The notes below the pieces were generated by a model. It was not told the origin of the DNA. It was given only the letters and a program-made list of their open reading frames with translations, and did not search any database. DNA of 56,913 nt from positions 1 through 56,913 of the forward strand of contig CAMODY010000001.1 in the NCBI GenBank assembly GCA_946611595.1. The letters are read 5' to 3'. Each line of letters begins with the position of its first letter. Positions within the stretch are counted from its first letter, which is position 1. Shown one piece after another: positions 3,990 through 23,770 of this stretch. The DNA comes from an uncultured Clostridia bacterium (GTDB taxonomy: Bacteria > Bacillota > Clostridia > Lachnospirales > Lachnospiraceae). Made by a program: the position numbers and the translations under genes.

Positions 3990-5780
3990 TTACTCACCCA
4001 CTTTCTCGATCGCATCAAACTTGCACTGCTGGATACACAGACCACAGCGGTTACAGTTTGCAACATCTGCGATATAAGCCTTTTTATTTGCTTCATCAAA
4101 TGCGATAGACGGGCAGGCAATCTTCATGCACTGCCTGCAGCCAACACACTTGTCAGGATTCATCTGTACGTGTTTTCCTGCGTTCGCTCTCTGTACTTCT
4201 TTGATCAATGCGCAAGGTCTCTTGGTAATGATCACGAAAGGACCTTCAGCCTTAAGCGCAGCCTCAAGAGCTTCTTTTGCTGCCTCCTGATCAACCGGGT
4301 CAAAGACGCGTAAATGATCATCATCAATACCTAAGGAACGGACAACACTTTCAATATCGATCGCCGGGGATTCGTAACCCATTAAGTTCTTTGTTGTACC
4401 CGGGTTTTGCTGATGGCCCGTCATAGCGGTAATGGAGTTATCCAAAATACATGCAACAACATTGGATTCAGATGCTACGATATCGATCAGTGAAGTAAGC
4501 CCTGAATGGAAGAAGGTAGAATCTCCAAGTTCACCAATTGCTTTGCGGCTATCACCCTGCGCTTTCAAAGCTCTTGAAAGACCAACCAGTGAAGAGAAAC
4601 CACTTCCCATGCAAATGCAGGTATCAAAGCCGCTAAGCGGCGGATTGATCGCAAGTGCATAGCATCCAATGTCTCCAAGGGAAACGAATTTGTCGCGCAT
4701 TTTGCTTAATGCAAAGTAGAATCCGCGGTGCGGACATCCTGCACAAAGGACCGGCGGACGTGCCGGCACATTTACCGCATCTACCTGATAACGGAACTCG
4801 TCCTGAGATCCGATCAGGGAATCTCTTACGACCTTAGTGTTGAATTCTCCCTGGATCGTAAGCTTTTCTTTTCCGATTGCATTCGTAAAGCCAAGGGCCT
4901 TTACTGTATTTTCCAGATAAGGCTCTCCCTCTTCTACGATATATAAGGTTTCATATTTAGAAGCAAAGTCCGCCATCAGCTTTCTCGGAAGCGGATAGGT
5001 AAGACCAAGCTTTAAAACGCTAGCTGTATCGCCAAAGACTTCTTTTACATACTGGTAGGAAATACCGGAAGTGATGATTCCGATCTTTGCTCCCTCAACT
5101 TCCTCTACTCTGTTGAGTGCTGAAGTATTGGAATACTCTTCCATTTTTTCAAGAAGGTCTTCACGAATGATGTGACGTTTTTTCGCATTTACCGGAAGCA
5201 TGGAATACTTCGCTGCATTCCCCTCATATTTTTTAACCGGAACGTCAACTCTTTCTCCGATCTCTACCACACTTTTAGAATGGCATACACGCGTTGTCAT
5301 ACGGAAAAGGACCGGAACGTCGTATTCTTCGGATAGTTTCATCGCCTCGATAATAAAATCCTTGCACTCCTGAGAGTCTGAAGGTTCTACCATTGCAAGT
5401 TTTGCATGCGGTGCATAAAGGCGGTTATCCTGCTCGTTCTGGGAACTATGACATGCCGGATCGTCTGCAGTAACAAAAATAAGTGCACCATTCACACCGC
5501 AATATCCCATCGTAAAGATCGGGTCTGCGGCAACATTCATACCTACATGTTTGAACGTACAGATTGAACGCATGCCTCCGATACTTGCACCGGAAGCTGC
5601 CTCTGCTGCGACCTTTTCATTCGGTGACCATTCGCTGTAAATAACGTCTTTATAAAGGCCTCCGATATTCTCTAATATCTCTGTGCTTGGTGTGCCTGGA
5701 TAGGCAGATGCGAAATGACCGCCGCCCTCATAGAAGCCACGGGCTACCGCTTCATTTCCGCTCATGATCATCTTACTCAT
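3990..5780 (-). CDS. iorA: Indolepyruvate:ferredoxin oxidoreductase, alpha subunit (TPP-binding, with C-terminal 2x[4Fe-4S] domain)
   Basis: 596 aa. It starts MSGNEAVARGFYEGGGHFASAYPGTPSTEI, has the TPP motif GDSTFFHSG, and ends with two CxxCxxCxxxCP-type clusters (CVGCRQCMKIACP, CNRCGLCIQQC). Confidence 0.9.
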   Translation of the reverse strand: MSKMIMSGNEAVARGFYEGGGHFASAYPGTPSTEILENIGGLYKDVIYSEWSPNEKVAAEAASGASIGGMRSICTFKHVGMNVAADPIFTMGYCGVNGALIFVTADDPACHSSQNEQDNRLYAPHAKLAMVEPSDSQECKDFIIEAMKLSEEYDVPVLFRMTTRVCHSKSVVEIGERVDVPVKKYEGNAAKYSMLPVNAKKRHIIREDLLEKMEEYSNTSALNRVEEVEGAKIGIITSGISYQYVKEVFGDTASVLKLGLTYPLPRKLMADFASKYETLYIVEEGEPYLENTVKALGFTNAIGKEKLTIQGEFNTKVVRDSLIGSQDEFRYQVDAVNVPARPPVLCAGCPHRGFYFALSKMRDKFVSLGDIGCYALAINPPLSGFDTCICMGSGFSSLVGLSRALKAQGDSRKAIGELGDSTFFHSGLTSLIDIVASESNVVACILDNSITAMTGHQQNPGTTKNLMGYESPAIDIESVVRSLGIDDDHLRVFDPVDQEAAKEALEAALKAEGPFVIITKRPCALIKEVQRANAGKHVQMNPDKCVGCRQCMKIACPSIAFDEANKKAYIADVANCNRCGLCIQQCKFDAIEKVGE

Positions 5781-5850
5781 AACAAGTCTTCCTTCCTGAA
5801 AAAGTACTGCCAGATAGAAGTTAATTGCTTAAAAAATTCAATTTGTCAAC

Positions 5851-5926
5851 TTGTCGACAAATCTCTATTTTATTGTACTTGAGCTTATACAATTTGGCAA
5901 TCAATATTTCTTGAAAAATTGTACAA
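5851..5926. promoter_or_regulatory. Three GT-Nx-AC palindromes, candidate GntR/FadR-type operators
   Basis: The elements are TTGTCGACAA (5851-5860, perfect 10-bp palindrome), ATTGTA-N10-TACAAT (5872-5893, one arm is the -10) and TTGTACAA (5919-5926, perfect 8-bp palindrome). All lie in the iorA upstream region. Confidence 0.4.
5872..5900 (-). promoter_or_regulatory. Candidate sigma-A promoter of the iorA operon: TTGCCA-N17-TACAAT (minus strand)
   Basis: The reverse complement of 5895-5900 is TTGCCA and of 5872-5877 is TACAAT, with a 17-nt spacer. The site lies about 90 nt upstream of the iorA ATG. Confidence 0.5.
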
Positions 5927-5943
5927 AAAAAGTCCCTGAAAAT

Positions 5944-5971
5944 TGAAAAAGAAGCGGACTGGCCGCTTCTT
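5944..5971 (-). terminator. Rho-independent terminator after the CapA-like gene
   Basis: The stem is gaagcgg (5951-5957) / ccgcttc (5963-5969) with a 5-nt loop. On the minus strand it is followed by a T-run (complement of aaaaa at 5946-5950). Confidence 0.65.
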
Positions 5972-5987
5972 TAATTAGTTCCATATT

Positions 5988-7346
5988 TTAAAAGCCTTCC
6001 GGATCCGGTTCCAAGCGGATGCTTTCGCGGAATCTGTTATATTCTCCGCTGATCCTGCCCATCGTACGGTTGTAGGAGTCGATTGCTGCTCCTTCCGAAC
6101 TTGCGCCCCAGCTTGATGGATCTTTTTCATTATCAAGCGGTACGATCGAATAAACTCTGCCCTGTCCGTCATCTGTAAGATCCACCCAGGTCGGAATAAT
6201 ATCAAGGCCTGTGATCTTGACCTTTCCGTTGTTAAACTTGGAGAAAGTGACATTAAAGATCAGACCGTCTTCGGTATAGCCGCGGTTGCCATCCTCATCC
6301 ATCAGATTTGCTCTCTGATTCGAGATCTCATTACCCATTGAATACAGGCAGAGCATCTCATGGCCATTGCTGCTGGTTAAGGTCTCGTAACGCTCAATAA
6401 CATGCGGATGACCGCCAACGATCACATCGACTCCCATATCGCAAAGTCTTTGGGCGATTGCCTGTTGATCCTCATTTGGATCATCCTGATATTCATCGCC
6501 CCAGTGGATGTAGAAGATATTAGCCTCTACTCCAAGCATATCCATCTGATCAAGATCACTTTGCACAGCATTATAGAGTTCATCTAAATCGCTATAGCAA
6601 AAGCTGTTGACTAGGTCCTCTCCCCCGTCTGTAAGAGGAAGACCGTTTAAGGATTTAGTCCATCCGGTACTCTCACGAGTATCGTAGGTATAGCAGACAA
6701 AGCCAAGTTTGATGCCATTAACCATCTTGGTGATGATGTAGTGCTCATCCGTACTCTGTCTTGTTCCGGTATATTCCATACCGTTTTCCTTGATCACATC
6801 GAGTGTTCTTTTAATGCCGTAGGTTCCGGAATCGTTTGCATGGTTATTTGCTGTAAGGCAGATATCAACGCCTGCATTTGCCAGAGTAGTTACGATATTA
6901 TCCGGACAATTAAAGAGCGGATAACTCTTATATTCATTCTCTTCGCCGGCACAGGTAACTTCCAGGTTTGCGACCATAATGTCAGGCGCTGAATAATATG
7001 GTGCGACCAGAGCAAAGTCTCGGCTGAAATCGTAGTTTCCGCCGCCAGTAGCTGCTGCCTCGTAGATCGGTGAATGAATCAGAATATCTCCGGTAGATCC
7101 AACCGTTACTGAAGATGCAATAGCAGGGGAAGCAAGGCGAGGTCTTACTTCCTCCGGTGCCTCCTCTTTTGGTCTGGTCACCAAAAAGACGGTCACTGCA
7201 GCGATCAATACGATTAAGATCAGCAAAAGAATTCCCGGTTTAAACCCGCCTCTTCTTCTGCGTTTTTTCTGATTTCTTCGCTGCGGTCTTTGCGTCTGAT
7301 ATCTTCTATCACTCTGATATCTTTGATTACTTCTTCTTTGACTCAT
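5988..7346 (-). CDS. CapA/PGA_cap-family metallophosphoesterase-like protein, N-in bitopic
   Basis: 452 aa. It has an Arg-rich N-tail (MSQRRSNQRYQSDRRYQTQRPQRRNQKKRRRRGG), one TM (ILLLILIVLIAAVTVFLV), then a CapA-like domain (VGSTGDILIH, LTANNHANDSG, GGHPHV). Confidence 0.75.
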   Translation of the reverse strand: MSQRRSNQRYQSDRRYQTQRPQRRNQKKRRRRGGFKPGILLLILIVLIAAVTVFLVTRPKEEAPEEVRPRLASPAIASSVTVGSTGDILIHSPIYEAAATGGGNYDFSRDFALVAPYYSAPDIMVANLEVTCAGEENEYKSYPLFNCPDNIVTTLANAGVDICLTANNHANDSGTYGIKRTLDVIKENGMEYTGTRQSTDEHYIITKMVNGIKLGFVCYTYDTRESTGWTKSLNGLPLTDGGEDLVNSFCYSDLDELYNAVQSDLDQMDMLGVEANIFYIHWGDEYQDDPNEDQQAIAQRLCDMGVDVIVGGHPHVIERYETLTSSNGHEMLCLYSMGNEISNQRANLMDEDGNRGYTEDGLIFNVTFSKFNNGKVKITGLDIIPTWVDLTDDGQGRVYSIVPLDNEKDPSSWGASSEGAAIDSYNRTMGRISGEYNRFRESIRLEPDPEGF

Positions 7347-7357
7347 ATGTTCACCAT

Positions 7358-9382
7358 TTAATTATCTGAGGTTTTAGTAATAATATCTGCAAGATAATAA
7401 TCACCGTCTTTTACCATGATCCAGGTCATATTCGTATCCCAGGTTCTTACAGATTCGCCGTCCCTTAAAATATCCTGTACAAAACTGATATCGCAGGAAT
7501 AACAGCTGTCGGAATACTTCTTGATATTTGTGACAGTTTCTTCGCTCAACTGGATGCCGTCATGTTCCTGCATCCAGGACACATCTGCAGAAGAGGCGCT
7601 GACAAACGCCGGAGAATTATCCAGCATGACGCTACTTAATGCCTCTCTTCCGGAATCTCCCGAGAAATATCTTGCGTAAGGATCAAATAAAGATTTAACC
7701 CGCTCTGTCTGTTCTGCTGCAAATGCCTCATCAGCATCAAAGCCCGCCGTATACACATCACCGATCAGGCTGCACGGAGTGCTGTTTCCGTTTTCATCAG
7801 TCATGGAAACATCCGTTCCTGCGAAGATTCCTTTTACCGTGTATGTATCAACTGTCGGCATATCTGCGATAATGCCTTCATCTATCAGTCTGGATAAAAT
7901 CTGAATCCGGCTTCCCGATTCCGTAATAAAGGAACGATCTACAGCCTGCTGATTGATCGTCAAAGTTGCGGTGGTCGGAATCTGTGCTACAAGTTCCGTT
8001 ACCTTAAGTTCTTCAGAAGCAAGCTGTGTTTTCTGTTCGCTCCACTGATTGTTTTCAGAACCGCTGCCTGAATTTTTGTCGAGATAAAGTTTCAGCAGAT
8101 TCTCATCTCCGGAGCGGATCATGTATACGTTTTCATCTCCGCTGCTTTCCGCATTGATTTTTACATAACGCAGTTTATTCTCCGCATTTTTATCCTGCAG
8201 GTACTTCGCAACCGTACCCTCTGCCCCAAAAAGCGAAGGATCAGAAAGTGCAACGTCATCTGCTGTTACCAGATGCAGCGATTCTAAATTGCCTTCCTGA
8301 ATATCTTCTACGATTTCATTCATATAATGTTCCGGAAGACCGTTTTCATAGCGGCTTAAGAACGTCCACAAAAGGACCATTGCTGCAATCAGCACAAGGA
8401 TAAAAGCTCCCCAGGCAATAAAGAACCCTTTTTTAAAAGACTTTGTAAAGACTTTCTTTTCTTTTTTGCCCTTGCCTTTCTTTACAGGCTGTTTTGCAGC
8501 TGCTTTCCTTACCGGACGTCTCTCTTCAAACTCTTCTTCCGGCTCATACGCTGCTTCCGGCTCATACGCTTCCTCAGGTTCGTACTCTTCTTCCGGCTCG
8601 TAGTATTGCTCTTCCTCTCTTAAGGCTTCAGCCTCTAAAGCGCGGCGTCTTTCCTGCCGTCTTCTTCTGGCTTCATCATGAATTCTTTGCTGCCTTAAGC
8701 GGTCTTCAGCTCTTCTTTTTTCAAGCTCTTCAGCTCTTTCTTTGGCAAGTTCTTCGGCTCTTTTTCTTCTTTGTGCCGCTTCCCTTCTTCTTTGAAGTTC
8801 CTGTTCATATTCTTCGTCAATTCCCCGTTCTCTTCGGATCTGACGCATGATATCCTGCAGATCTTCTTCCGACATTCTACGGGGTTTGTTTTCAGAACCT
8901 ATAGATGCAGATCTTCTCCGGAACTGTATCTGCTCGGGGCTTTTTTCCTGTTCTAATGCTTTCGCTTCCAGCACTCTTCGTCTTTGAGCTCTGGCCTCAG
9001 CAGCTTTGATCCGTTCCTCTTCTGCTGCTATCTCTTCTGAAAGTCTTTGCGCTTCTGCTCTGCGTTTTTCAGAAGCTTCTCTTTTTGCCTGCTCGATTTT
9101 CTCATTTTCTTCTGCAAGCCGGCGTTCCTGTTCCTGTCTGATGCGTTCTGCCGAGCGCTTCTTTAGCTCCTCGATCGGATCATCTTCTGCAGATCTTCTG
9201 CGTTTTACAGGATTCGGTCTGGTCGAGTAAAGACCTTCTCCAATCGTCTCCTCAAGCGCTCTGCGTCTGTTGATACTCTCGCTTTGAAGTTGGTCTGTTT
9301 CTAAAGCCTCTGCTCTCCAGGATGCAGCGGAATCTATACTCTCGGTATTTATATTTTGTCCATGCGGTCGTCTCTGTGCCAT
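7358..9382 (-). CDS. Hypothetical bitopic membrane protein: about 310-aa E/R/K-rich cytoplasmic region, one TM, about 330-aa extracytoplasmic domain of unknown family
   Basis: 674 aa with ATG and SD GAGG. The N-terminal half is dominated by E/R/K/A heptad-free runs (RRLAEENEKIEQAKREASEKRRAEAQR...) and YEPEE repeats. The TM is FFIAWGAFILVLIAAMVLLWTF. Confidence 0.7.
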   Translation of the reverse strand: MAQRRPHGQNINTESIDSAASWRAEALETDQLQSESINRRRALEETIGEGLYSTRPNPVKRRRSAEDDPIEELKKRSAERIRQEQERRLAEENEKIEQAKREASEKRRAEAQRLSEEIAAEEERIKAAEARAQRRRVLEAKALEQEKSPEQIQFRRRSASIGSENKPRRMSEEDLQDIMRQIRRERGIDEEYEQELQRRREAAQRRKRAEELAKERAEELEKRRAEDRLRQQRIHDEARRRRQERRRALEAEALREEEQYYEPEEEYEPEEAYEPEAAYEPEEEFEERRPVRKAAAKQPVKKGKGKKEKKVFTKSFKKGFFIAWGAFILVLIAAMVLLWTFLSRYENGLPEHYMNEIVEDIQEGNLESLHLVTADDVALSDPSLFGAEGTVAKYLQDKNAENKLRYVKINAESSGDENVYMIRSGDENLLKLYLDKNSGSGSENNQWSEQKTQLASEELKVTELVAQIPTTATLTINQQAVDRSFITESGSRIQILSRLIDEGIIADMPTVDTYTVKGIFAGTDVSMTDENGNSTPCSLIGDVYTAGFDADEAFAAEQTERVKSLFDPYARYFSGDSGREALSSVMLDNSPAFVSASSADVSWMQEHDGIQLSEETVTNIKKYSDSCYSCDISFVQDILRDGESVRTWDTNMTWIMVKDGDYYLADIITKTSDN
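8536..8607 (-). repeat. Four tandem imperfect 18-bp in-frame repeats encoding (Y/E/A)YEPE(E/A)
   Basis: The units are 8536-8553 and 8554-8571 (17 of 18 positions identical, cttccggctcatacgct[g/t]), then the more diverged 8572-8589 and 8590-8607. They translate to YYEPEEEYEPEEAYEPEAAYEPEEE. Confidence 0.8.
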
Positions 9383-9388
9383 AGTCTT

Positions 9389-10366
9389 CTACCTCACAAG
9401 AAATGCATTCGGCACGATTCTCGGTCCGCTTAAGGCATATGGTGTGTTTAAAAACTCGCCCTGGTAAACCATCTGCGTTGAAGAACCTCCATCTAAGGAA
9501 GCAGCATTCACTGCCCCATAGTCGCTCATGATCTTTATCATATCGGAAAACGTAGCGCCAATTGAATTTGCCTGTCTTCCGTCTACTGTTACAAAAATAA
9601 TGGTTCCATCAGCAGCCTGTCCGATCGCAGTTCTAGGATTTAATCCGCCGCCGGCTCCGGAAACTTCCTGCTCATTTCCATTCAAAATTAATACCGGTGC
9701 ATAGGATGTCTGAACGCAGACACAATCCCGAAAGCCCATATTTAAAGCTTCCTGACCGGTATAGTTTCCAAGAACCATTTTATGATCAGCTGTAAATCCA
9801 ATGGCTGGATATGTCGTATTCATATCCCCATATACGAACTCACCTTCTGAAATTACGAAGCCATCCGGGGTGCCGCCGTTACCTTGTCCATTCGGATCGT
9901 AAAAACCGCCACCGTTGATTCCTGCAACCGCTCCATAGCGCTCTGCGATATGATCGACAGTATCACCGTCGCTGCCATCATAAGGACCCTTGTTTCCAAT
10001 AAAGATTCTGGATGGGTCTTTAATTAACATAACATCTCCGATATAAGTCGAACCGGAAATTTCAAAGATCTCAATATCTGAATTTGCAGACGTTTCGTCA
10101 TTAACGATATTAACCAGCGAAGTATCCGTTTCTTCACTGATCTCTTTAACCGTATTGTTATCTACGATCTCCTGGATCCGTTCTTTGGAGAAATACAGAT
10201 TCGGGATCCAGTAAAGCGCGCTGGTTTCCCGAAGAGACATCGTCATGATTTCGGCAGCTTTAGTAGAAGGGCCTTTCATCACGATTGTAAGGGCCCCAAT
10301 CACTGCTGCAACAAATGTCAGCAGAAAGATACCAATAATAAATAATGCTCTTAAGAAATGTTTCAT
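9389..10366 (-). CDS. Phosphodiester glycosidase (NAGPA / 'uncovering enzyme'-like) family protein, N-terminal TM anchor
   Basis: 325 aa. It has an N-terminal TM, then AGINGGGFYDPNG ... NPRTAIGQAADGTIIFVTVDGRQ ... NAASLDGGSSTQMV. This is the pattern I recognise for the NAGPA domain. Confidence 0.75.
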   Translation of the reverse strand: MKHFLRALFIIGIFLLTFVAAVIGALTIVMKGPSTKAAEIMTMSLRETSALYWIPNLYFSKERIQEIVDNNTVKEISEETDTSLVNIVNDETSANSDIEIFEISGSTYIGDVMLIKDPSRIFIGNKGPYDGSDGDTVDHIAERYGAVAGINGGGFYDPNGQGNGGTPDGFVISEGEFVYGDMNTTYPAIGFTADHKMVLGNYTGQEALNMGFRDCVCVQTSYAPVLILNGNEQEVSGAGGGLNPRTAIGQAADGTIIFVTVDGRQANSIGATFSDMIKIMSDYGAVNAASLDGGSSTQMVYQGEFLNTPYALSGPRIVPNAFLVR

Positions 10367-11509
10367 TTATTTTTTGTCCTTAAAAACCCATTTCCTCTGT
10401 ATGCCATAACTAAAAACAAACAAACACATATCGACAACACATTTGATCAGGACATTTAAAAATCCCGTCACATGCAACAGACCATTTGCGACCAGATCCA
10501 CTAAAAGGAAGGATAAGATCATCTGACAAAAAGCCAAGATAAAATATTTCGTAGCGGTCTTTCTGACATTCGCTACATCTTTAAAGACCACTTTTCTGTT
10601 AATGATAAAATTGACGATGGATGAGATCACTCTTGATGTCAGCGTAGCGATCAAAACGGCCGCAATATTCAGATTCCAGGTATGCTGGATCAGAGCGGAT
10701 GCCAGTGACATCGACTCTCCGATCGAATCCTTTAAATTCCATACAGCTCCGCAGATCGCCATCGTAATCCAATAGACACCGATATCCACAACCCAGGATG
10801 AAATGGAACTTAAGATAAATTTAAAGAAATACTTTAAGACCACTTTATAGATCTTAAAGGAATCCTTTAATGGATTGAAGTGAGAGGATTCATTATCGTC
10901 AATATAGATCGTTTCGATCGGAACTTCCAAGTACGGAGTTTTCCGGTTCACGATCTCAATCAGCATCTGGGTCTCGTACTCATAGCGGTCACCCGGAAGT
11001 TTCGAAAAGTTTTCAAAACAACTTGCGGGGATTACGCGAAGTCCGGTCTGCGTATCTTTTAATTTAATGCCGCAGGCAAAACGATATACGAAACTTGAAA
11101 TCTTATTTCCGAAGCGGCTTCTTGGCGGGATATTTGCGCTGTTAAAATCCCTGCCGCCGATAATGACAGTCCCCGGATTTTTTTCATAAGCATCCAGGCA
11201 GTCCTGCATCGATTCTGTCGTATGCTGACCATCACCATCGCAGGTAATCGCAACGTCGATATCAGGACGCTCTTCTAAAAGATAGCGCATAGCTGTTTTA
11301 AGTCCTGCGCCCTTTCCTTTGTTGACCTCATGCGTAAGCACAGTAACCTCCGGATGTAATGCCGCTTCATCAAAGAAGTGGACATACTCCGGAGCGCTTC
11401 CGTCATTGACAACTATAATATTCTGATATCCGGTCTCTACCAGTTTGTCAGCAAATTTTGCAAACTTTTCATCCGGATTTAATACGGGTAAAATAACCGC
11501 TACATTCAT
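10367..11509 (-). CDS. Fusion of family-2 glycosyltransferase (polyprenyl-phosphate sugar synthase type) with a GtrA-like 4-TM domain
   Basis: 380 aa. The N-terminus (VAVILPVLNPDEKF ... VVNDGS ... CDGDGQH) is GT2, DPM1/GtrB-like. The C-terminal roughly 150 aa has 4 TM helices ending in the RKWVFKDK motif typical of GtrA-family proteins. Confidence 0.8.
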   Translation of the reverse strand: MNVAVILPVLNPDEKFAKFADKLVETGYQNIIVVNDGSAPEYVHFFDEAALHPEVTVLTHEVNKGKGAGLKTAMRYLLEERPDIDVAITCDGDGQHTTESMQDCLDAYEKNPGTVIIGGRDFNSANIPPRSRFGNKISSFVYRFACGIKLKDTQTGLRVIPASCFENFSKLPGDRYEYETQMLIEIVNRKTPYLEVPIETIYIDDNESSHFNPLKDSFKIYKVVLKYFFKFILSSISSWVVDIGVYWITMAICGAVWNLKDSIGESMSLASALIQHTWNLNIAAVLIATLTSRVISSIVNFIINRKVVFKDVANVRKTATKYFILAFCQMILSFLLVDLVANGLLHVTGFLNVLIKCVVDMCLFVFSYGIQRKWVFKDKK

Positions 11510-13101
11510 CTTGAATTTCTGCTCCTGTTCACTCTGTTTCCAGAAGAATTTGTACGCCTTGAGGAGCTATTTCTCTGTGAAGTCCGCGTTGTTCTGCCGG
11601 AAGTAGTATTTTCTCTTTTTGAGTGTGTCTGCACACGCGCTCTCTCAGTTGAGCCTCTGCTATCCGGTCTGTATCCGGATGTTTGTCTTCTTTGTGCCTG
11701 AGCCCTTCTTTGACGGGCACGGCGCTGCATCTCAGCTCTTCTTCTTTTCTGACGTGCTCTCATTAAGAGATAGAACACGATCAGTGCTGCAATGATCACC
11801 GCAATGATGATCAGGATTACGACTAAAGCCTTGCTGCTCTTTTTATCAGTCTCTTTATCTTTGGACGGAACAGGCGTTGTCTCTTCCTCACGAACCGACT
11901 CCTGCTCTGCCTTAGCTTCCTGCTGTGCGTAAGTTATGATGTTATCGAGAACATCATTTCCGCTGGTATCCGCACCTACCGTACTGCGATACAGACCATA
12001 TTTCGCGCAGCTGAATTTATAATCATTCGGATTTCCGTTTTCATCATATCCGTCATCTACATAAAACCACATCCACTGCTGTGATCCATGTTTCAGATAT
12101 GCATCTTTTGCGACTTCTAAGGCGCTCTTTCCGCCAAAGTCTGCAAGCGGAGCTCTTGTATCCATCTCAATCGGATTTTCTGCATAAAGATGGAGATAGG
12201 TTTTGGGAACATCCCATGTGCCATAAGTATTTGCAGATTCGCTATACTGGCTTGCATCATTCGTAATTTCGACCGCTTCTCTTACAAGCTTGGAAACATA
12301 CTGGTGACCACCGTGACCATATTCGCCGTTAACATCATGGGTGACAACGACCTGCGGCTGGAACTTTCTGATCGTATCAACGATATATCCAAGACACTCG
12401 TCATGCTCGAACTGTCCTTCCGCCTCTTCCAAGGACTCAGAATAATTATCGTAGAACTTTCCAAGCTGCGGATAGTGATCCACACCCATTGTCCAGATAC
12501 CGTCAAGCAGCTCGTGATTTCTGTAAGACTCTGTCTGGAAGAAATCAGTGAAGTATGCGACCTGAACTCGTGCTCTATCTTCGTTGGTGTAGATCGGGAT
12601 CATACCTCCAAAGAACAGTACCTCATCGTCCGAATGGGTGGAGATAAAGAGGATGTCCGGTCTTTCCCAGGACGGCTGCCACTGCTCTACGAAATCCGGA
12701 AGTTCACCGGCAGAAAAAGCAAAGATATCTGCTATTGTTGCCCCACCATTCGGGATCGTGATCGTTGCAGAATTGGACGAGCCGGATAGCTTTACATACT
12801 CATGAAGGAAGCCATACTGTCCGCAGGAGATCTCGCTGCCGCCATCTTTCATGGTCCATGTAGTCGGGATAGAGTCCCATTTGATGTACACAGAATCAAT
12901 CGGTTCTGATGCATTGATTGTAAGAGTCGTTCCCGCATCAAAATGTTCAGTGCTCATATAGTCATCGTCTAAAAGCGCCGAACCATTGCTGCCATCAGAT
13001 GATTCGATCGTTACATCCAGCTGGGCAGCCTCTGCCTTAAATGCAAAGAAGCCCAATCCTGAAATGAATATGACTGCTATGACAAGTAAGAATTTTTTCA
13101 T
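11506..13101 (-). CDS. PIG-L/LmbE-family de-N-acetylase with signal peptide, N-terminal beta domain, C-terminal TM and Arg/Ser-rich tail
   Basis: 531 aa. It has a signal peptide (MKKFLLVIAVIFISGLGFFAFKAEA), the PIG-L motifs ISTHSDDEVLFFGG and GHGGHQ, a TM (ALVVILIIIAVIIAALIVFYLLM) and a basic tail (RARQKRRRAEMQRRARQRRAQAQRR...). There are 4-nt overlaps with both neighbours. Confidence 0.75.
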   Translation of the reverse strand: MKKFLLVIAVIFISGLGFFAFKAEAAQLDVTIESSDGSNGSALLDDDYMSTEHFDAGTTLTINASEPIDSVYIKWDSIPTTWTMKDGGSEISCGQYGFLHEYVKLSGSSNSATITIPNGGATIADIFAFSAGELPDFVEQWQPSWERPDILFISTHSDDEVLFFGGMIPIYTNEDRARVQVAYFTDFFQTESYRNHELLDGIWTMGVDHYPQLGKFYDNYSESLEEAEGQFEHDECLGYIVDTIRKFQPQVVVTHDVNGEYGHGGHQYVSKLVREAVEITNDASQYSESANTYGTWDVPKTYLHLYAENPIEMDTRAPLADFGGKSALEVAKDAYLKHGSQQWMWFYVDDGYDENGNPNDYKFSCAKYGLYRSTVGADTSGNDVLDNIITYAQQEAKAEQESVREEETTPVPSKDKETDKKSSKALVVILIIIAVIIAALIVFYLLMRARQKRRRAEMQRRARQRRAQAQRRQTSGYRPDSRGSTERARVQTHSKRENTTSGRTTRTSQRNSSSRRTNSSGNRVNRSRNSR

Positions 13102-13700
13102 TTTACGTAATTCCTATAATCTGATTCCGTGTTGATATTACAAAACGCCGCTCTCAGTTCGGCTTCATCTTTCTCTGCCATCTGTTTTTGAAGTGCAGCG
13201 AAGGAATAAAAGTTCACACCTTCAGAAAGAGATGCATACATTCGGTAGTCTCCTCTTTCCAGCATCCCTTTCAACTTTTCGAGCATTTGTATGCCATATG
13301 CTCCGATCAACGGTTCAGCATGTTCTCCATCCATTAAAACACAGGCTGTATCCATGCAATGATCAAAGAAAAAAGAAAGCACATCAATGTCCGCAAATGG
13401 AACGTCCACCGGGACAACAGCAAATCTTGAAGCACCCGTCTGTTCATAAACGGATACCAAACCTCCCATCGGGCCTTTCTCTACGTATTTGTCAGGCACA
13501 AGCTCAGCATCAGGGAGGAGATTTTGAATCTCCGCTGCATGATCTAAGCTTCCGGCAGATATTATGATTCGATCAAAAGAATCGCTGGCTTTGTGATATA
13601 AGTGCTCCAGAAAAGTCTCATTATCATGAAGATGGAGAAAGATTTTGTCTTTCCCCATTCGGGTGCTCTTTCCACCAGCCAATATCACAAGTGTTTTCAT
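13098..13700 (-). CDS. MobA-like NTP transferase (nucleotidyltransferase; substrate unknown)
   Basis: The start is moved to the ATG at 13700 (MKTLVILAGGKSTRMGKDKIFL = LAGGxSxRMGxDK signature). Later motifs are GPMGG and VPVDVPF. The track ORF begins at 13748 with a hydrophobic non-homologous extension. Confidence 0.7.
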   Translation of the reverse strand: MKTLVILAGGKSTRMGKDKIFLHLHDNETFLEHLYHKASDSFDRIIISAGSLDHAAEIQNLLPDAELVPDKYVEKGPMGGLVSVYEQTGASRFAVVPVDVPFADIDVLSFFFDHCMDTACVLMDGEHAEPLIGAYGIQMLEKLKGMLERGDYRMYASLSEGVNFYSFAALQKQMAEKDEAELRAAFCNINTESDYRNYVK

Positions 13701-13707
13701 GGGCGAA

Positions 13708-13736
13708 ATTATACCATAAGCTACTATAAAAATAAA
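13708..13736 (-). promoter_or_regulatory. Candidate extended -10 promoter (TGgTATAAT) ending 7 nt before the ATG at 13700
   Basis: The reverse complement of 13708-13716 is TGGTATAAT. A weak -35 (TTTATT, complement of 13731-13736) sits at 17-nt spacing. There is no SD between the -10 and the ATG. Confidence 0.45.
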
Positions 13737-13804
13737 GAAGAGGTGCATTTTTAAGAGGTCACAGAAAATTCAGAAAAAGAATCAGCTAACCGCATGGAAT
13801 CCGC

Positions 13805-13833
13805 TTGAGATTTCCTATTTGCCCAAGTATAAT
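13805..13833 (+). promoter_or_regulatory. Candidate promoter of reverse rubrerythrin: TTGAGA-N17-TATAAT
   Basis: TTGAGA lies at 13805-13810 and TATAAT at 13828-13833, with a 17-nt spacer. It is divergent from the 13700 promoter. Confidence 0.55.
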
Positions 13834-13843
13834 GAGTTAAGAA

Positions 13844-13864
13844 TTCATATTGAATGAATATGAA
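13844..13864. promoter_or_regulatory. 7-7-7 inverted repeat TTCATAT-N7-ATATGAA between the -10 and the SD, candidate repressor operator
   Basis: The arms are perfect 7-bp repeats at 13844-13850 and 13858-13864. The first arm starts 11 nt downstream of the -10 hexamer. Confidence 0.4.
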
Positions 13865-13890
13865 ATTTAATCTTAAGGAGGATTTTAATT

Positions 13891-14430
13891 ATGAAGTGGA
13901 TTTGTAAAGTATGTGGCTATGTTCATGAAGGCGATACACCTCCAGAGCAGTGCCCGGTATGTAAGACAGGAAAAGAAAACTTTGAGAAAATGGGCGGTGA
14001 CAAAACATGGGCTGCTGAGCACATTGTAGGCGTTGCAAAAGACGCTCCAGAAGATATCATCGCAGGTCTTCGTGACAACTTTAACGGAGAATGCTCTGAA
14101 GTAGGTATGTATCTTGCTATGGCAAGAGTTGCTCATAGAGAAGGATATCCGGAAATCGGTCTGTATTGGGAGAAAGCAGCTTATGAAGAAGCTGAGCATG
14201 CAGCTAAATTTGCTGAACTCCTTGGTGAAGTTTTAACTGACTCCACAAAGAAGAATCTCGAAATGAGAGTTGACGCTGAAAACGGCGCAACACAGGGCAA
14301 ATTTGATCTTGCTAAGAAAGCAAAAGAGCTTGGCTTAGATGCAATCCATGACACAGTTCATGAGATGGCAAGAGACGAGGCTAGACACGGAAAAGCATTC
14401 GAAGGACTGCTTCAGAGATATTTCCACTAA
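13891..14430 (+). CDS. Reverse rubrerythrin (N-terminal rubredoxin-like CxxC...CxxC domain, C-terminal ferritin-like di-iron domain)
   Basis: 179 aa. It has [25 protein letters not shown] followed by ExxH di-iron motifs ([18 protein letters not shown]). The domain order is inverted relative to classical rubrerythrin. SD AGGAGG. Confidence 0.85.
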
Positions 14431-14457
14431 GCCGAAAAACCTAATAACAATAATTAT

Positions 14458-14497
14458 AAAGAGGATGAGCCCCATTGAGCTCATCCTCTTTTTTTTG
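14458..14497 (+). terminator. Rho-independent terminator of reverse rubrerythrin
   Basis: The stem is gaggatgagc (14461-14470) / gctcatcctc (14479-14488), extendable by A:T pairs. It is followed by an 8-nt T-run. Confidence 0.75.
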
Positions 14498-14620
14498 TCT
14501 TTTTCTGATAATACTGTTATATTTTATCAAATGTTTCAAAATAATACTTTGAAGTAAAAGAGTTGTTCGATTTCAGATAAAGAAATCATTAATGCTCTAT
14601 CTCAAACGCAGGTTAGAACC

Positions 14621-14650
14621 TTGACATATAATAGGGTGTGCCCATAAAAT
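14621..14650 (+). promoter_or_regulatory. Candidate rubredoxin promoter TTGACA-N18-TAAAAT
   Basis: TTGACA lies at 14621-14626 and TAAAAT at 14645-14650. An 11-bp palindrome ATGTGaCACAT (14668-14678) lies in the predicted 5' UTR. Confidence 0.45.
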
Positions 14651-14708
14651 ATTGGTACAAATCCGAAATGTGACACATGAATCATAATTAAAAGAAAGGA
14701 CGAATACT

Positions 14709-14867
14709 ATGAAATACGAATGTAATACTTGCGGCTATACTTATGATCCTGAATTAGGTGATCCTGATAACGGAATCGCTCCGGGAACAGCTTGGGAAGA
14801 CGTCCCGGCAGATTGGGTATGCCCGGTATGCGGAGTTGGAAAAGAAGACTTTTCACCTGCAGAATAA
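14709..14867 (+). CDS. Rubredoxin (52 aa)
   Basis: Below the ORF-track size cut-off. The ATG at 14709 to the TAA at 14865-14867 translates to [52 protein letters not shown]. This has both CxxCG knuckles and the conserved aromatic core. Confidence 0.9.
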
Positions 14868-14889
14868 AGAATAAGATGAATATCTAAAG

Positions 14890-14924
14890 AAATGGGGGCA
14901 AGAGAAATCTTTCTCCCATTTTTG
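14890..14924 (+). terminator. Terminator-like hairpin after rubredoxin
   Basis: aaatggggg (14890-14898) pairs with ctcccattt (14913-14921), including one G:U pair. A T-run extends to 14923. Confidence 0.5.
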
Positions 14925-14963
14925 TTACTTACAAAATAATCATACCCCGACGAATGCTTACCA

Positions 14964-14972
14964 TGCTATAAT
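14964..14972 (+). promoter_or_regulatory. Extended -10 element TGcTATAAT ending 8 nt before the LCP start codon
   Basis: TG lies at 14964-14965 and TATAAT at 14967-14972. The ATG is at 14981. There is no SD-like purine run between them. Confidence 0.45.
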
Positions 14973-14980
14973 GGTCATCT

Positions 14981-16438: not shown

Positions 16439-16460
16439 AACTCATAAATAGTAATGATAC

Positions 16461-16493
16461 AAAAAAAGCGAGGAGCTAATCTCCTCGCTTTTA
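16461..16493. terminator. Bidirectional terminator between the convergent LCP and Wzz-like genes
   Basis: The stem is agcgaggag (16467-16475) / ctcctcgct (16481-16489). It is flanked by an A-run (16461-16467) and T residues (16490-16492). Confidence 0.7.
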
Positions 16494-16514
16494 TGTATTA
16501 TCCAGATTCAATTA

Positions 16515-17597: not shown

Positions 17598-17644
17598 AAC
17601 CTATTCCTTACTATATCTGAATTTAATGATAAGTTCCGCGTATT

Positions 17645-18574
17645 TTACCATATATCCTTATGAGAGTCAAAATACTCCCTCATAGCTGCATTCTGCGGAC
17701 CAAAAGAGAAATGACCAACTACAAGATTCTCACTGACCATGATTGGAAGTGAAGAATTAATACAAAACGCGCATAGATCTTCCTCATCTAAACCAAGCTC
17801 GACGCGGCTCCTTAATCTTACTGAGAAATAATGCATCCTCTCCCAGAGGCTCCGTTCAAAAAGAATTGCTCCTATGCTAAAGCGTACCGGACACGGACGT
17901 TCCTCTAAAGGTTCTTCAGCAAGTTTACGGTCGATTTCATCTATAGGAGGGAAATATCCGCCTTCACCCCAGAAGAATCTGGCAACATCGGCACTTGTTT
18001 CAATGATATTTTCAGGTCCCCCTGCATACATCGGTTTTCCGAACAGTTTTGTATATGTATCCGTCAGCCCAAGTTTTTCTAAGAGCCGGACATATCCATA
18101 GCCGTTAATATTGATCAGCGGCGCCATAACGCCCGGGTAATACTGCCCTTCTTTTGCATGTTCGTATGCTTTCATCAAACGGCTGAAAAAGTCGCTGCAA
18201 AGGAAGATATCCTCGTCCATTTTATAAATATACTGTGCATTTGGATGCAGCAGAATCGCTACATTCTGCACGAGGGATACGTGGTTTTCTTTTGTTGAAA
18301 GATAAGACCAGCCTTCTTTCTCACACATCGCATCTATTTCCGGCACGAATTTTCCGGATGTGATAATGCAGACATCGATATCCGGAGTCAGATTCTGTTT
18401 AAACCTGCGAAAGACAGGCTCATACAGATACTCTTTATATCCGGCAAGCACCATAGCCATCTTGTTCTGGCCCTTGGAACGATTTTTAAATGTATAGTGG
18501 CACTTCGTCCGCCGTCTTTCCAGGAACTTCCATATAATGCTTTTAATTCTGCTATACTCAGGATCTTTTTTCAT
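17645..18574 (-). CDS. Hypothetical protein, possible GT-A-fold glycosyltransferase (DED motif)
   Basis: The start is set at the ATG at 18574 (SD AAAGG, 2 nt after the wzx stop). The track start at 18610 is GTG and overlaps wzx by 34 nt. YKMDEDIF is a DxD-like motif after a Rossmann-like alternating beta/alpha N-half. I recognise no named family. Confidence 0.4.
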   Translation of the reverse strand: MKKDPEYSRIKSIIWKFLERRRTKCHYTFKNRSKGQNKMAMVLAGYKEYLYEPVFRRFKQNLTPDIDVCIITSGKFVPEIDAMCEKEGWSYLSTKENHVSLVQNVAILLHPNAQYIYKMDEDIFLCSDFFSRLMKAYEHAKEGQYYPGVMAPLININGYGYVRLLEKLGLTDTYTKLFGKPMYAGGPENIIETSADVARFFWGEGGYFPPIDEIDRKLAEEPLEERPCPVRFSIGAILFERSLWERMHYFSVRLRSRVELGLDEEDLCAFCINSSLPIMVSENLVVGHFSFGPQNAAMREYFDSHKDIW

Positions 18575-18576
18575 TT

Positions 18577-20040: not shown

Positions 20041-20047
20041 ATTTGAA

Positions 20048-23754: not shown

Positions 23755-23770
23755 CTTCTCTCCAACTTTT

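Follow-up and report, generated by a model that had tools for sequence, protein, structure and literature searches.

A six-gene cell-envelope operon in a gut or rumen Lachnospiraceae bacterium is a lineage-specific composite around a widely conserved core, consisting of (i) a GT2 polyprenyl-phosphate sugar synthase fused to a GtrA membrane domain; (ii) a homologue of NAGPA, the 'uncovering enzyme'; and (iii) a bitopic partner protein with NTF2-like ectodomain units. Our tentative reading, to which we give slightly less than an even chance, is that the operon would encode a membrane-surface pathway around a lipid-carried sugar, in which the NAGPA homologue would split polyprenyl-phosphate-sugar outside the cell and probably hand the sugar on to an envelope acceptor.

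Organization and boundaries of the operon

The window analyzed here, a stretch of 56,913 nucleotides, contains six same-direction minus-strand ORFs between 5988 and 13700 (Table 1). Their junctions (-4, -4, 0, +6 and +11 nt) match those given in a first-pass annotation exactly, and its promoter-to-terminator span was borne out, confirming a real six-gene cell-envelope operon. Pfam matches likewise supported all five families it had named (MobA-like, PIG-L, GT2-GtrA, NAGPA and CapA-type), and topology predictions, based on hydrophobicity and the positive-inside rule, agreed with its placing of the main domains of PIG-L, NAGPA, the 674-aa protein and CapA outside the membrane.

An extended -10 element ends 7 nt upstream of the ATG at 13700, and the sequence TG(G/T)TATAAT also precedes the orthologous ATG by 7–8 nt in the related loci L001, L002 and L083. 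The recurrence of this element at the same distance in relatives points to a conserved leaderless-type promoter and sets the start at 13700, implying an operon mRNA that would be leaderless or near-leaderless. An automatic consensus promoter scan missed this element, reporting nothing on the minus strand near 13700, because the -35 region is weak. At the other end, a strong intrinsic terminator is placed 13 nt past the last stop codon.

The first-pass annotation had also drawn in an LCP ligase gene as the divergent neighbor of the operon. This association was not supported: a rubrerythrin gene, a terminator and a rubredoxin gene intervene, in that order, separating the LCP gene from the operon, and there is no synteny, an LCP gene being found within 10 kb in only 2 of 39 loci and missing at L001 and L002, the closest relatives of the window. 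In the window, the LCP gene faces a separate polysaccharide cluster of the Wzx type in convergent orientation.

Table 1. Features of the operon and its flank in the window
Feature	Coordinates	Strand	Remarks
Intrinsic terminator	5938-5972	-	10-bp stem (5972-5948) with 5 G-C pairs, then T-run TTTTTCAATTTTC
PGA_cap/CapA-type protein	5988-7346	-	PF09587, E 1.8e-60; calcineurin-like fold; predicted extracytoplasmic
Bitopic partner, 674 aa	7358-9382	-	Directly downstream of NAGPA; AF2 and Foldseek
NAGPA phosphodiester glycosidase homologue	9389-10366	-	PF09992, E 3.9e-42; membrane-anchored, predicted outward-facing
GT2 polyprenyl-phosphate sugar synthase fused to GtrA domain	10367-11509	-	PF00535 + PF04138
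PIG-L/LmbE-family de-N-acetylase	11506-13101	-	PF02585, E 4e-14; predicted extracytoplasmic
MobA-like nucleotidyltransferase, 200 aa	13098-13700	-	NTP_transf_3, PF12804, E 1e-26; cytoplasmic
First-gene ORF (MobA-like) as called	13098-13748	-	Likely true start 13700
Extended -10 promoter element	13708-13716	-	TGGTATAAT
Rubrerythrin gene	13891-14430	+	Between operon and LCP gene
Rubredoxin gene	14709-14867	+	Between operon and LCP gene
LCP gene	14981-16438	+	

Conserved core and lineage-specific genes

Our comparison set of 164 related loci comprised NAGPA-seeded genome loci, counted over the 71 that have an anchor ORF, and GT2-GtrA-seeded metagenome loci, for which counts were limited to the 71 with enough downstream DNA. 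GT2-GtrA was present in 36 of the 71 NAGPA-seeded loci, nearly always directly upstream of NAGPA, while about half of the NAGPA and partner pairs in these loci had no adjoining GT2-GtrA. Among the GT2-GtrA-seeded loci, NAGPA lay directly downstream in 57 of 71, NAGPA and its partner lay directly upstream in five, and the two were fused in another two; NAGPA adjoins GT2-GtrA in about 90% of orthologous loci. In the 684-aa fusion of L142 and L143, the GT2-GtrA profile covers aa 3–348 and the NAGPA profile aa 347–683, and the same single-polypeptide architecture (PF00535, PF04138 and PF09992) occurs in more than 100 distinct protein clusters (35–62% identity). The fusion protein has a fifth TM in addition to the four of GtrA, which would put the NAGPA domain outside the membrane.

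The tandem-NTF2 ectodomain is the near-constant partner of NAGPA, its gene immediately following that of NAGPA in 67 of the 71 NAGPA-seeded loci and, in a second count, in 58 of 62, and its family comprises at least 1348 clusters at 50% identity. Linkage of the core trio spans Lachnospiraceae, Oscillospiraceae and other Clostridia. The neighborhood conservation that the first-pass annotation had named as a check was found only in part: GT2-GtrA and NAGPA co-occur widely, but PIG-L joins the module in 20 of the 71 NAGPA-seeded loci and CapA in few. The operon is not conserved as a whole; wide conservation is limited to the module of GT2-GtrA, NAGPA and the C-terminal ectodomain of the 674-aa protein.

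Where PIG-L is found in NAGPA-seeded loci, it adjoins the module in nearly every case, and it is an occasional accessory of the core. Only the window, L001, L002, L081 and L083 have the MobA-like gene immediately upstream of PIG-L, and CapA-like genes in the module are limited to the window, L001–L003, L081, L082, L057 and L080; both genes are mostly confined to the window's own lineage. The MobA-like gene is a lineage-specific first gene with an uncertain pathway role, and the CapA-like gene is a last gene that is mostly lineage-specific. L081 and L082 have the order MobA, PIG-L, GT2-GtrA, CapA and lack both NAGPA and partner. A PAP2-like match was obtained in 29 of the 164 loci, in most of which the gene, for a PAP2 lipid-phosphate phosphatase, abuts the module. 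No recurrent GT-C gene was detected among the module neighbors across the 164 loci. The window contains no Stealth/GNPTAB-type GlcNAc-1-phosphate transferase.

Predicted properties of the encoded proteins

The GT2 domain (Glycos_transf_2, E 1.6e-13) is predicted to be cytoplasmic and joined to a GtrA-type TM domain (GtrA_DPMS_TM, E 2e-9). It carries the DxDxQH signature of polyprenyl-phosphate sugar synthases, and D91-G-D93-G-Q95-H96, as well as GtrA residues, are invariant among 35 orthologues; the protein weakly resembles AglJ and PpgS.

The NAGPA homologue has a predicted N-terminal anchor (residues 8–26), and the top structural matches of its AF2 model (pLDDT 87) are the vertebrate NAGPA structures (E 5e-18, TM-score 0.57–0.72). 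NGG, PRTAIGQ, DG-R264 and D292-G-G-x-S296 are invariant among its orthologues, and the homologues share a juxtamembrane GPS...E..SA motif. The loop published as a 'strictly invariant' DGGGS has the form DGG(S/T/M)S in this clade.

Neither Pfam nor NCBIfam searches gave a family match for the 674-aa protein, which consists of a 315-aa E/R/K-rich cytoplasmic region, a single TM (aa 320–338) and a 330-aa ectodomain. In its AF2 model (pLDDT 87.7), the ectodomain comprises a beta domain between two NTF2-like domains, and its best Foldseek match is the double-NTF2 protein TcpC (3UB1, E 7.6e-6). The description of this protein as bitopic with an ER/K-rich region was correct, but it is not merely an ER/K-rich spacer, as its ectodomain is tandem NTF2-like. 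Only four columns of the family reach a conservation of at least 90%, consistent with a non-enzymatic role.

The PIG-L protein is predicted to begin with a signal peptide, followed by an extra domain on the N-terminal side and then the deacetylase domain, and to end in a C-terminal TM (aa 425–443) and a cytoplasmic Arg/Ser-rich tail. MshB is its closest PDB relative, and its metal-binding and catalytic residues (H156-x-D158-D159, D256 and H263-x-x-H266) are kept across 20 orthologues. MobA equivalogs are the top NCBIfam matches of the MobA-like protein, below cut-off (95.9 versus 164 bits), and MobA proteins are its sole PDB relatives, aligning over the full length. The CapA-like protein, in which an Arg-rich N-terminus precedes a single predicted TM (residues 38–56), is distantly similar to the epimerase MslH, and the metallophosphoesterase-like motifs GDxxxH, NNH and GGHPH are readable in its translation.

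Relation to known systems

Three-component extracytoplasmic glycosylation systems, such as GtrA/GtrB/GtrC, CsbB-GtcA-YfhO and GacI-GacJ-GacL, combine a GT2 polyprenyl-phosphate sugar synthase, a GtrA-type flippase or helper, and a GT-C transferase. The module resembles them in having a DxDxQH GT2 joined to a GtrA domain, in placing its next step outside the membrane, and in being compact and self-contained; it differs in having, instead of the GT-C enzyme, an enzyme of NAGPA fold that is often fused to GT2-GtrA, and a tandem-NTF2 bitopic protein.

The profile alignment with vertebrate NAGPA (PDB 6PKU, 6PKG, 6U11) extends over the whole catalytic domain and retains NGG, RTA(I/V)G and the Asp-Gly-Gly-x-Ser loop, including the catalytic Asp. 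However, identity in structural alignments is about 22%, the fourth loop residue is S, T or M rather than G, and the window homologue carries a conserved juxtamembrane motif beside its N-terminal membrane anchor and lacks an EGF stalk. Its genomic partner is a polyprenyl-phosphate sugar synthase instead of a Stealth/GNPTAB GlcNAc-1-phosphate transferase. The vertebrate N-acetyl-binding Glu-Thr pair is not evidently conserved; in our reading of the alignment it lies opposite a Gly-rich loop, so that the sugar cannot be inferred.

De-N-acylation of a GT2-made polyprenyl-phosphate-(N-acyl)aminosugar ahead of extracytoplasmic transfer is known from lipid A modification, by ArnC/ArnD and by Francisella FlmF2/NaxD, and the PIG-L archetype acts on a lipid-linked GlcNAc (GlcNAc-PI). 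ArnD and NaxD, however, have other folds, act at the cytoplasmic face and serve a GT-C transferase (ArnT/FlmK), whereas the window deacetylase is predicted to lie outside the membrane. Streptococcal PplD, a membrane-anchored, extracellular, metal-dependent enzyme, de-N-acetylates an envelope GlcNAc-1-phosphate-linked sugar and thereby adds positive charge (PMC8807736). As PplD has a CE4 (beta/alpha)7 fold and the window protein, a PF02585 member, has a signal peptide and is anchored at its C-terminus, the two would be functional analogues only.

TcpC of Clostridium perfringens pCW3 is, like the 674-aa protein, a bitopic Gram-positive envelope protein with two NTF2-like ectodomain units, and PBP2a and PBP5, also bitopic Gram-positive envelope proteins, have NTF2-like N-terminal domains. 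Sequence identity is 8–9%, with no detectable similarity, and the domain arrangement keeps the TM-score low, at about 0.3. The 674-aa protein has an extra beta domain between the NTF2 units, and its gene context is unrelated to conjugation.

Proposed pathway and alternatives

In the pathway that we tentatively favor, (i) the cytoplasmic GT2 would load polyprenyl phosphate with a sugar of the hexosamine type, probably GlcNAc, that comes from a nucleotide sugar; (ii) the fused GtrA domain would aid passage of the product to the outer leaflet; (iii) the anchored NAGPA homologue would cut the sugar-phosphate glycosidic bond, regenerating polyprenyl phosphate; (iv) the sugar would most likely be transferred to an envelope acceptor, replacing the usual GT-C enzyme; and (v) the tandem-NTF2 protein would be a non-catalytic partner, binding the acceptor or acting as a scaffold. 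As lineage-specific additions, the outward PIG-L may de-N-acetylate lipid-linked or transferred GlcNAc to positively charged GlcN, and the CapA-type metallo-enzyme and the MobA-like nucleotidyltransferase are further additions of this group. Polyprenyl-phosphate-sugar is chemically a sugar-1-phosphodiester and a candidate NAGPA substrate. This reading is favored by the linkage and frequent fusion of the core genes, the PAP2 neighbors, published domain surveys in which NAGPA is joined to a TelC domain or to surface calcineurin-like phosphoesterases, the DxDxQH signature of the GT2, the vertebrate fold and invariant Asp-Gly-Gly-x-Ser loop of NAGPA, the lack of a recurrent GT-C neighbor, the few conserved columns of the NTF2 partner, and the conserved PIG-L residues. 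A 2026 structural study favors a retaining, glycosyltransferase-like mechanism for NAGPA (PMC13474241). Sequence cannot separate transfer from simple hydrolysis. Against the pathway count the stereochemistry, as an inverting GT2 would give a beta-linked product while vertebrate NAGPA cleaves alpha-GlcNAc-1-phosphate, the Gly-rich loop opposite the vertebrate Glu-Thr pair, the altered DGGGS loop, the absence of NAGPA from L081 and L082, and the PAP2 partner, which fits a pyrophosphate-linked substrate better than a monophosphate. Furthermore, the pairs lacking GT2-GtrA suggest that NAGPA may have other substrates.

The first-pass annotation had in general terms proposed that an envelope pathway targets sugars of the GlcNAc type and bonds of the sugar-phosphodiester kind, and this our results support; its specific version, trimming of a finished GlcNAc-phosphate wall decoration, was not supported, as the fusion, the PAP2 neighbor and the membrane anchoring together argue for a lipid-linked substrate. 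We consider it unlikely that NAGPA cleaves GlcNAc-1-phosphate bonds in finished wall glycopolymers, be it the LCP-made GlcNAc-1-P-6-MurNAc linkage unit or GlcNAc-1-phosphate side groups 'uncovered' to phosphate, with PIG-L de-N-acetylating the linkages to tune cleavage or charge and the CapA-like protein removing or processing exposed phosphate. PAP2 enzymes act on lipid phosphates, not wall polymers, and such editing would leave the frequent fusion or translational adjacency of NAGPA to a polyprenyl-phosphate sugar synthase/flippase unexplained; the LCP genes are non-syntenic and the window has no Stealth/GNPTAB-type transferase. Yet it would use the canonical NAGPA reaction, removal of GlcNAc from a GlcNAc-1-phosphate diester, it would suit the pairs without an adjoining GT2-GtrA, and the pair is often followed by a gene of phosphoesterase type, CapA-like in the window and PAP2 in other loci. 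Published domain surveys include NAGPA fusions to surface calcineurin-like phosphoesterases, and PplD provides a precedent for extracellular de-N-acetylation of linkage GlcNAc-1-phosphate (PMC8807736).

Still less probable, in our view, is that NAGPA merely hydrolyzes polyprenyl-phosphate- or polyprenyl-pyrophosphate-sugar at the outer leaflet, freeing carrier lipid from dead-end intermediates or releasing the sugar as a nutrient or signal while PAP2 recycles the lipid phosphate. Vertebrate NAGPA is indeed a hydrolase, PAP2 is a frequent neighbor, and NAGPA fusions to a TelC domain are reported in Bacillota by the same surveys, but a synthase joined to an enzyme that hydrolyzes what it makes would burn nucleotide sugar in a futile cycle, and neither the near-constant NTF2 partner nor the occasional PIG-L would have an obvious role. 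That unrelated envelope and cofactor genes came together by chance, or for shared regulation alone, without acting in a common pathway, is very improbable, and for the core it is already contradicted by linkage across Clostridia and fusion (GT2-GtrA-NAGPA) in the clusters described above. The end genes leave it some room, as the MobA-like protein resembles a true molybdenum-cofactor enzyme, both end genes are largely restricted to one lineage, and two loci lack NAGPA and partner; against it stand the adjacency of PIG-L to the module, the overlapping or few-nucleotide junctions, and the single promoter and terminator.

In a limited literature search, we found no published description of such a pathway, in agreement with the earlier statement that no characterized pathway has this composition. 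The conserved core appears to be a hitherto undescribed means of putting lipid-carried sugars to extracellular use.

Organization of the operon and its surroundings

All six open reading frames (ORFs) of the operon (5988–13700) are co-directional on the minus strand; the junctions reported in the first-pass annotation (−4, −4, 0, +6 and +11 nt) were reproduced exactly, and Pfam comparisons returned every one of the family names it had assigned. The strong terminator that it placed at the end of the operon is likewise present, as a 10-bp G+C-rich hairpin followed by a T-run (5972–5938, minus strand). A consensus promoter scan listed no site near 13700, while the promoter described as abutting this position can be recognized as an extended −10 element, TGGTATAAT (13708–13716), that ends 7 nt ahead of the ATG at 13700. 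Among the 164 related loci compared (designated by L numbers), the diverged relatives L001, L002 and L083 have TG(G/T)TATAAT 7–8 nt upstream of the orthologous MobA-like start codon and, like the window, lack a Shine-Dalgarno sequence between this element and the start, a conserved arrangement implying that the first gene would be expressed from a leaderless mRNA. Since the spacing between the −10 element and the ATG is conserved, the true start of the MobA-like gene is most likely 13700. Rfam searches of 5700–16600 detected no riboswitch or leader RNA, the sole match being a chance-level CsrC.

Features of the operon and its surroundings, with Pfam E-values for the operon proteins
Feature	Coordinates	Strand	Pfam E-value	Remarks
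PGA_cap (CapA-like)	5988–7346	−	1.8e-60	
674-aa protein	7358–9382	−	none	
NAGPA	9389–10366	−	3.9e-42	
Glycos_transf_2 + GtrA_DPMS_TM (GT2-GtrA)	10367–11509	−	1.6e-13 / 2e-9	
PIG-L	11506–13101	−	4e-14	
MobA-like NTP_transf_3	13098–13748 (ORF)	−	1e-26	Likely start 13700
Rubrerythrin	13891–14430	+		Divergent neighbor of operon; terminator after
Rubredoxin	14709–14867	+		Between rubrerythrin and LCP
LCP	14981–16438	+		Beyond rubrerythrin and rubredoxin
Wzx-type polysaccharide cluster	16515–26726	−		Wzx-type flippase, two Bac_transf, two GT2, DegT aminotransferase
Membrane/unknown proteins of this cluster, no Pfam match	16515–17597, 17645–18610, 21511–22731	−		
Second rubrerythrin	26723–27343	−		Upstream end of polysaccharide cluster; 4-nt overlap with aminotransferase gene
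GH25 muramidase	27542–28408			Near polysaccharide cluster
M23/G5 peptidase	35526–36905			Wall gene near DUF6077
DUF6077 protein, 656 aa	37072–39042	+		23 kb from operon
Class A PBP	40912–43593			Wall gene near DUF6077

Hydrophobicity and the positive-inside rule agree with the extracytoplasmic topologies that had been predicted for four of the proteins: PIG-L starts with a signal peptide and is anchored at its C-terminus, NAGPA is anchored at its N-terminus, the CapA-like protein has one transmembrane segment (TM) behind an Arg-rich N-terminus, and in the 674-aa protein a single TM follows 315 cytoplasmic residues (22% Glu, 18% Arg, 7% Lys). In three of the four bitopic proteins, the cytoplasmic tail is of low complexity and strongly basic or charged. 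That of PIG-L (window 11506–11733) contains 28% Arg, the CapA-like N-terminus (window 7236–7346) reads MSQRRSNQRYQSDRRYQTQRPQRRNQKKRRRR, and the ER/K-rich N-terminal region of the 674-aa protein (window 8438–9382) includes YEPEE-type repeats. It is possible that these tails constitute a common localization or interaction signal.

The LCP gene, which had been considered the divergent neighbor of the operon and part of the same pathway, is separated from it by the rubrerythrin and rubredoxin genes. An LCP gene was found within 10 kb at just 2 of the 39 genome loci and 1 of the 43 metagenome loci considered, and the closest relatives, L001 and L002, have none. In the window, it is convergent to a separate polysaccharide cluster, the two Bac_transf proteins of which are initiating transferases; the remainder of the window contains housekeeping genes. 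Rubrerythrin is the divergent neighbor of the operon in L001 and L002 as well.

Conservation of the gene neighborhood

A synteny count based on single-protein tblastn searches undercounted the divergent family of the 674-aa protein (hereafter, the partner) and was replaced by ORF clustering and profile HMMs. The NAGPA-seeded set comprised 80 genome loci from Lachnospiraceae, Oscillospiraceae, Ruminococcaceae and other Clostridia, with NAGPA homologs of 40–75% identity, for which all ORFs were clustered; counts are based on the 71 loci having a complete NAGPA ORF. The reciprocal set comprised 80 metagenome loci seeded on GT2-GtrA and analyzed with family HMMs, and the 71 of these with enough downstream DNA were counted.

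Using this approach, we determined that the six genes, which had been presented as one unit, are not conserved as such, but that a core consisting of GT2-GtrA, NAGPA and the partner is. The gene following NAGPA belongs to the family of the C-terminal half of the 674-aa protein in 67 of the 71 NAGPA-seeded loci. GT2-GtrA was found in 36 of these loci, nearly always directly upstream of NAGPA; in L059 and L074, it lies on the other side and strand. Conversely, NAGPA is directly downstream of GT2-GtrA in 57 of the 71 GT2-GtrA-seeded loci, while NAGPA and the partner are directly upstream in five, and altogether GT2-GtrA is adjacent to or fused with NAGPA in approximately 90% of this set.

The remaining operon genes are distributed more narrowly. 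Within the NAGPA-seeded set, PIG-L was identified in 20 of 71 loci, adjoining the module in nearly every one, CapA-like genes in six of 71, and the MobA-like gene in only the closest relatives, L001 and L002. The window operon, which belongs to a Lachnospiraceae bacterium and has its closest homologs in rumen and gut MAGs, is a composite of the widespread core and a lineage-specific MobA-like, PIG-L and CapA-like set. Three loci encode parts of this set together with GT2-GtrA and without NAGPA and the partner: MobA-PIGL-GT2GtrA-CapA in L081:551-5577, where CapA starts 3 nt past GT2-GtrA, PIGL-GT2GtrA-CapA in L082:107-3908, and MobA-PIGL-GT2GtrA in L083.

A PAP2-like gene, encoding a small lipid-phosphate phosphatase (e.g., L161:10224-10787 and L163:10205-10750), is present in 29 of the 164 loci and adjoins the module in most of these, often directly after the partner, the slot occupied by the CapA-like gene in the window. 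A MurJ/Wzx-type flippase is encoded downstream in seven NAGPA-seeded loci of Lachnospiraceae (L004, L008, L009, L010, L015, L036 and L052), where this MurJ/Polysacc_synt protein of about 520 aa is the product of the gene after the partner; in L106 (7114–8691), such a gene directly follows GT2-GtrA and NAGPA is absent. Seven loci (L030, L037, L038, L049, L065, L074 and L076) have two NAGPA genes, and in the three of these with resolvable ORFs (L030, L074 and L076), the whole pair of NAGPA and NTF2-like partner is duplicated, which suggests a paralogous expansion, possibly with differing specificities.

GT2-GtrA and its natural fusions to NAGPA

The GT2 domain contains an invariant D91-G-D93-G-Q95-H96, corresponding to the D-x-D-x-Q-H motif typical of polyprenyl-P sugar synthases; GT2-GtrA combines PF00535, PF04138 and DxDxQH, as expected of a synthase of the DPM1, GtrB, CsbB and GacI-GacJ type. 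It is weakly similar, below threshold, to AglJ and PpgS.

In two of the 71 GT2-GtrA-seeded loci (L142:2901-4955 and L143:6001-8055), GT2-GtrA and NAGPA form a single 684-aa protein. A search with this fusion protein as query revealed more than 100 distinct protein clusters (among P0309–P0414) of 680–750 aa and 35–62% identity, each with PF00535, PF04138 and PF09992 and originating from Clostridia and Oscillospiraceae. The fusion protein has the four TMs of GtrA and a fifth TM, which would place the NAGPA domain outside the membrane, and the next genes in the fusion loci encode the partner (family HMM E-value 2.7e-63) and a PAP2 lipid-phosphate phosphatase.

The NAGPA homolog

With a PF09992 (formerly DUF2233) score of 144.7 bits (cut-off 25), the window NAGPA is a true member of this family, having a variant recognition loop. 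The family profile covers the whole vertebrate catalytic domain in the alignment, and the AF2 model (pLDDT 87) best matches vertebrate NAGPA (E-value 5e-18, TM-score 0.57–0.72), solved bacterial DUF2233 proteins being weaker matches. Invariant residues include NGG, PRTAIGQ, DG-R264 and D292-G-G-x-S296, as well as a juxtamembrane motif, GPS...E47-x-S49-A50. A 2026 structural study reported that the DGGGS loop, which includes the catalytic Asp and recognizes GlcNAc-1-P, is strictly invariant, and argued for a retaining, glycosyltransferase-like mechanism (PMC13474241). Among 75 clostridial relatives of the window protein, D292, G293, G294 and S296 are invariant, while the fourth loop position is occupied by S (43), T (23) or M (7); residues 292–296 of the window protein are DGGSS, and DGGGS is retained in some of the fused GT2-GtrA-NAGPA relatives. 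In our view of the profile alignment, the vertebrate N-acetyl-binding Glu-Thr lies opposite a Gly-rich loop in the window family and shows no evident conservation.

The 674-aa partner protein

Searches of Pfam and NCBIfam, including weak matches, assigned no family to the 674-aa protein or to five distant homologs, and one member of the partner family yielded a single weak TcaA_2nd match (E-value 0.019). The family comprises at least 1348 clusters at 50% identity (E ≤ 1e-3); all ten clusters for which source names were retrieved are named 'hypothetical protein'. In the AF2 model of the ectodomain (pLDDT 87.7), two NTF2-like domains lie on either side of a beta domain; the best Foldseek match is the double-NTF2 protein TcpC (E-value 7.6e-6), followed by the NTF2 domains of PBP5, PBP2a and Csd6. 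Conservation reaches 90% in only four columns, which speaks for binding or scaffolding and against catalysis, and the ER/K-rich cytoplasmic region differs in length among lineages.

PIG-L, CapA-like and MobA-like proteins

The PIG-L protein scores 53.6 bits against PF02585 (cut-off 28.2), and 20 orthologs share its metal-binding and catalytic residues, namely those of the H-x-D-D (H156, D158 and D159) and H-x-x-H (H263 and H266) motifs and D256. Its predicted extracytoplasmic location and C-terminal anchor are unusual for the family. The nearest solved structure in a PDB sequence search is MshB. The streptococcal de-N-acetylase PplD (PMC8807736) was dropped as a family relative because it has a CE4 fold, and is a functional analog only.

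The CapA-like protein (PGA_cap, 205 bits) keeps the calcineurin-like motifs and shares a distant similarity with the epimerase MslH. A role in poly-gamma-glutamate synthesis (PgsB-PgsC-PgsA/CapA) was rejected, as a scan of window ORFs of at least 150 aa, and of shorter ORFs within 4500–16500, detected neither a PgsB- nor a PgsC-like gene. The position of CapA directly behind GT2-GtrA in L081, which lacks NAGPA, suggests that it may act on the same lipid-linked intermediate.

The best NCBIfam equivalog score of the MobA-like protein, 95.9 bits, falls below the cut-off for MobA (164), its only relatives in the PDB are MobA proteins, to which it aligns over its full length, and no other molybdenum cofactor gene was detected among the scanned window ORFs. 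In five loci, it is retained upstream of PIG-L despite an identity of only about 41%. It may be a sugar-nucleotide enzyme or a divergent true MobA; all of its detectable similarity is to MobA.

A proposed pathway and its alternatives

That the shared intermediate is a sugar linked to a lipid phosphate is indicated by gene linkage and fusion, the anchoring of NAGPA, the PAP2 neighbor and published fusions that join NAGPA to surface phosphoesterases or to a TelC domain; polyprenyl-P-GlcNAc is a GlcNAc-1-phosphodiester in its own right. From sequence and gene arrangement, we tentatively propose that GT2-GtrA, NAGPA and the partner form an envelope pathway in which a sugar is passed from such an intermediate to an acceptor, a reading that may well be correct, though we stop short of calling it probable. 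GT2 would form the polyprenyl-P-sugar and GtrA would assist in its flipping; NAGPA would then split the sugar-phosphate bond, regenerating polyprenyl phosphate, and the sugar would probably be handed to an envelope acceptor bound by the NTF2-like partner. PIG-L may de-N-acetylate the lipid-linked or the transferred sugar, a step resembling in its outcome that of PplD, as well as those of the lipid-linked deacylases of lipid A modification. The following caveats apply to this model: the expected product of GT2 is the beta anomer, whereas NAGPA cleaves the alpha anomer; and roughly half of the pairs of NAGPA and partner lack an adjacent GT2-GtrA, while L081 and L082 lack NAGPA.

The first-pass annotation had envisaged an envelope pathway in which a finished decoration is trimmed outside the cell; the envelope pathway is supported by our results, but the trimming is not, as linkage, fusion, anchoring and PAP2 point to a lipid-linked sugar. 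We therefore consider it unlikely that NAGPA cleaves, or 'uncovers', GlcNAc-1-P linkages in finished wall polymers, even if such a role would accommodate the pairs found apart from GT2-GtrA. Hydrolysis for the salvage of carrier lipid, which would also release polyprenyl phosphate, seems less likely still; it would be futile to fuse a synthase to an enzyme that only hydrolyzes, which is why delivery of the sugar to an acceptor appears probable. That the six genes are unrelated and merely juxtaposed is highly improbable considering the recurrence and fusion of the core, even though the set as a whole is lineage-specific.

Relation to known systems

The proposed transfer pathway follows the same working logic as the three-component GT2/GtrA/GT-C systems but differs in lacking the GT-C enzyme that defines them: no GT-C gene is present in the operon, nor is there one among the recurrent neighbor clusters across the 164 loci. 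In known polyprenyl-P-sugar systems, the last step, sugar transfer, is performed by GT-C enzymes, and to our knowledge every characterized pathway for polyprenyl-monophosphate-sugar decoration of wall polymers, lipoteichoic acids, O-antigens or lipid A ends in one. The DUF6077 protein is the only candidate in the window for a large, functionally uncharacterized membrane protein with possible glycosyltransferase activity. The mannose-6-phosphate 'cover and uncover' system (Stealth/GNPTAB and NAGPA) was also rejected as a model, since the conserved partner is GT2-GtrA and no Stealth domain was detected in the scanned window proteins. These proteins do not include a PAP2 phosphatase either. We know of no function assigned to the bacterial counterpart of the lysosomal uncovering enzyme, and a limited literature search revealed neither such a function nor a description of a bacterial GT2-GtrA-NAGPA system, so that its novelty is provisional.

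In abundant gut and rumen Clostridia, a synthase/flippase is tied to an outward-facing enzyme that is not a GT-C, both by close linkage of the genes and by over 100 independent fusion clusters. In a bolder version, which we regard as rather unlikely, the NAGPA-fold proteins of Clostridia would represent a new class of polyprenyl-P-sugar-dependent extracytoplasmic glycosyltransferases, which, with GT2-GtrA (often in one polypeptide) and the tandem-NTF2 partner, would form a self-contained envelope glycosylation machine replacing the supposedly universal GT-C; the family would be an ancient one with lipid-phosphate sugars as substrates, and the human uncovering enzyme its hydrolytic offshoot. 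The proposed transfer pathway makes a clear, testable biochemical prediction. If it holds, the bacterial NAGPA/DUF2233 family would gain a substrate and a role, a new partner family would be defined, and a surface-modification route, including charge-altering de-N-acetylation, would be revealed in dominant gut commensals, with consequences for their interactions with phages, antimicrobial peptides and the host.
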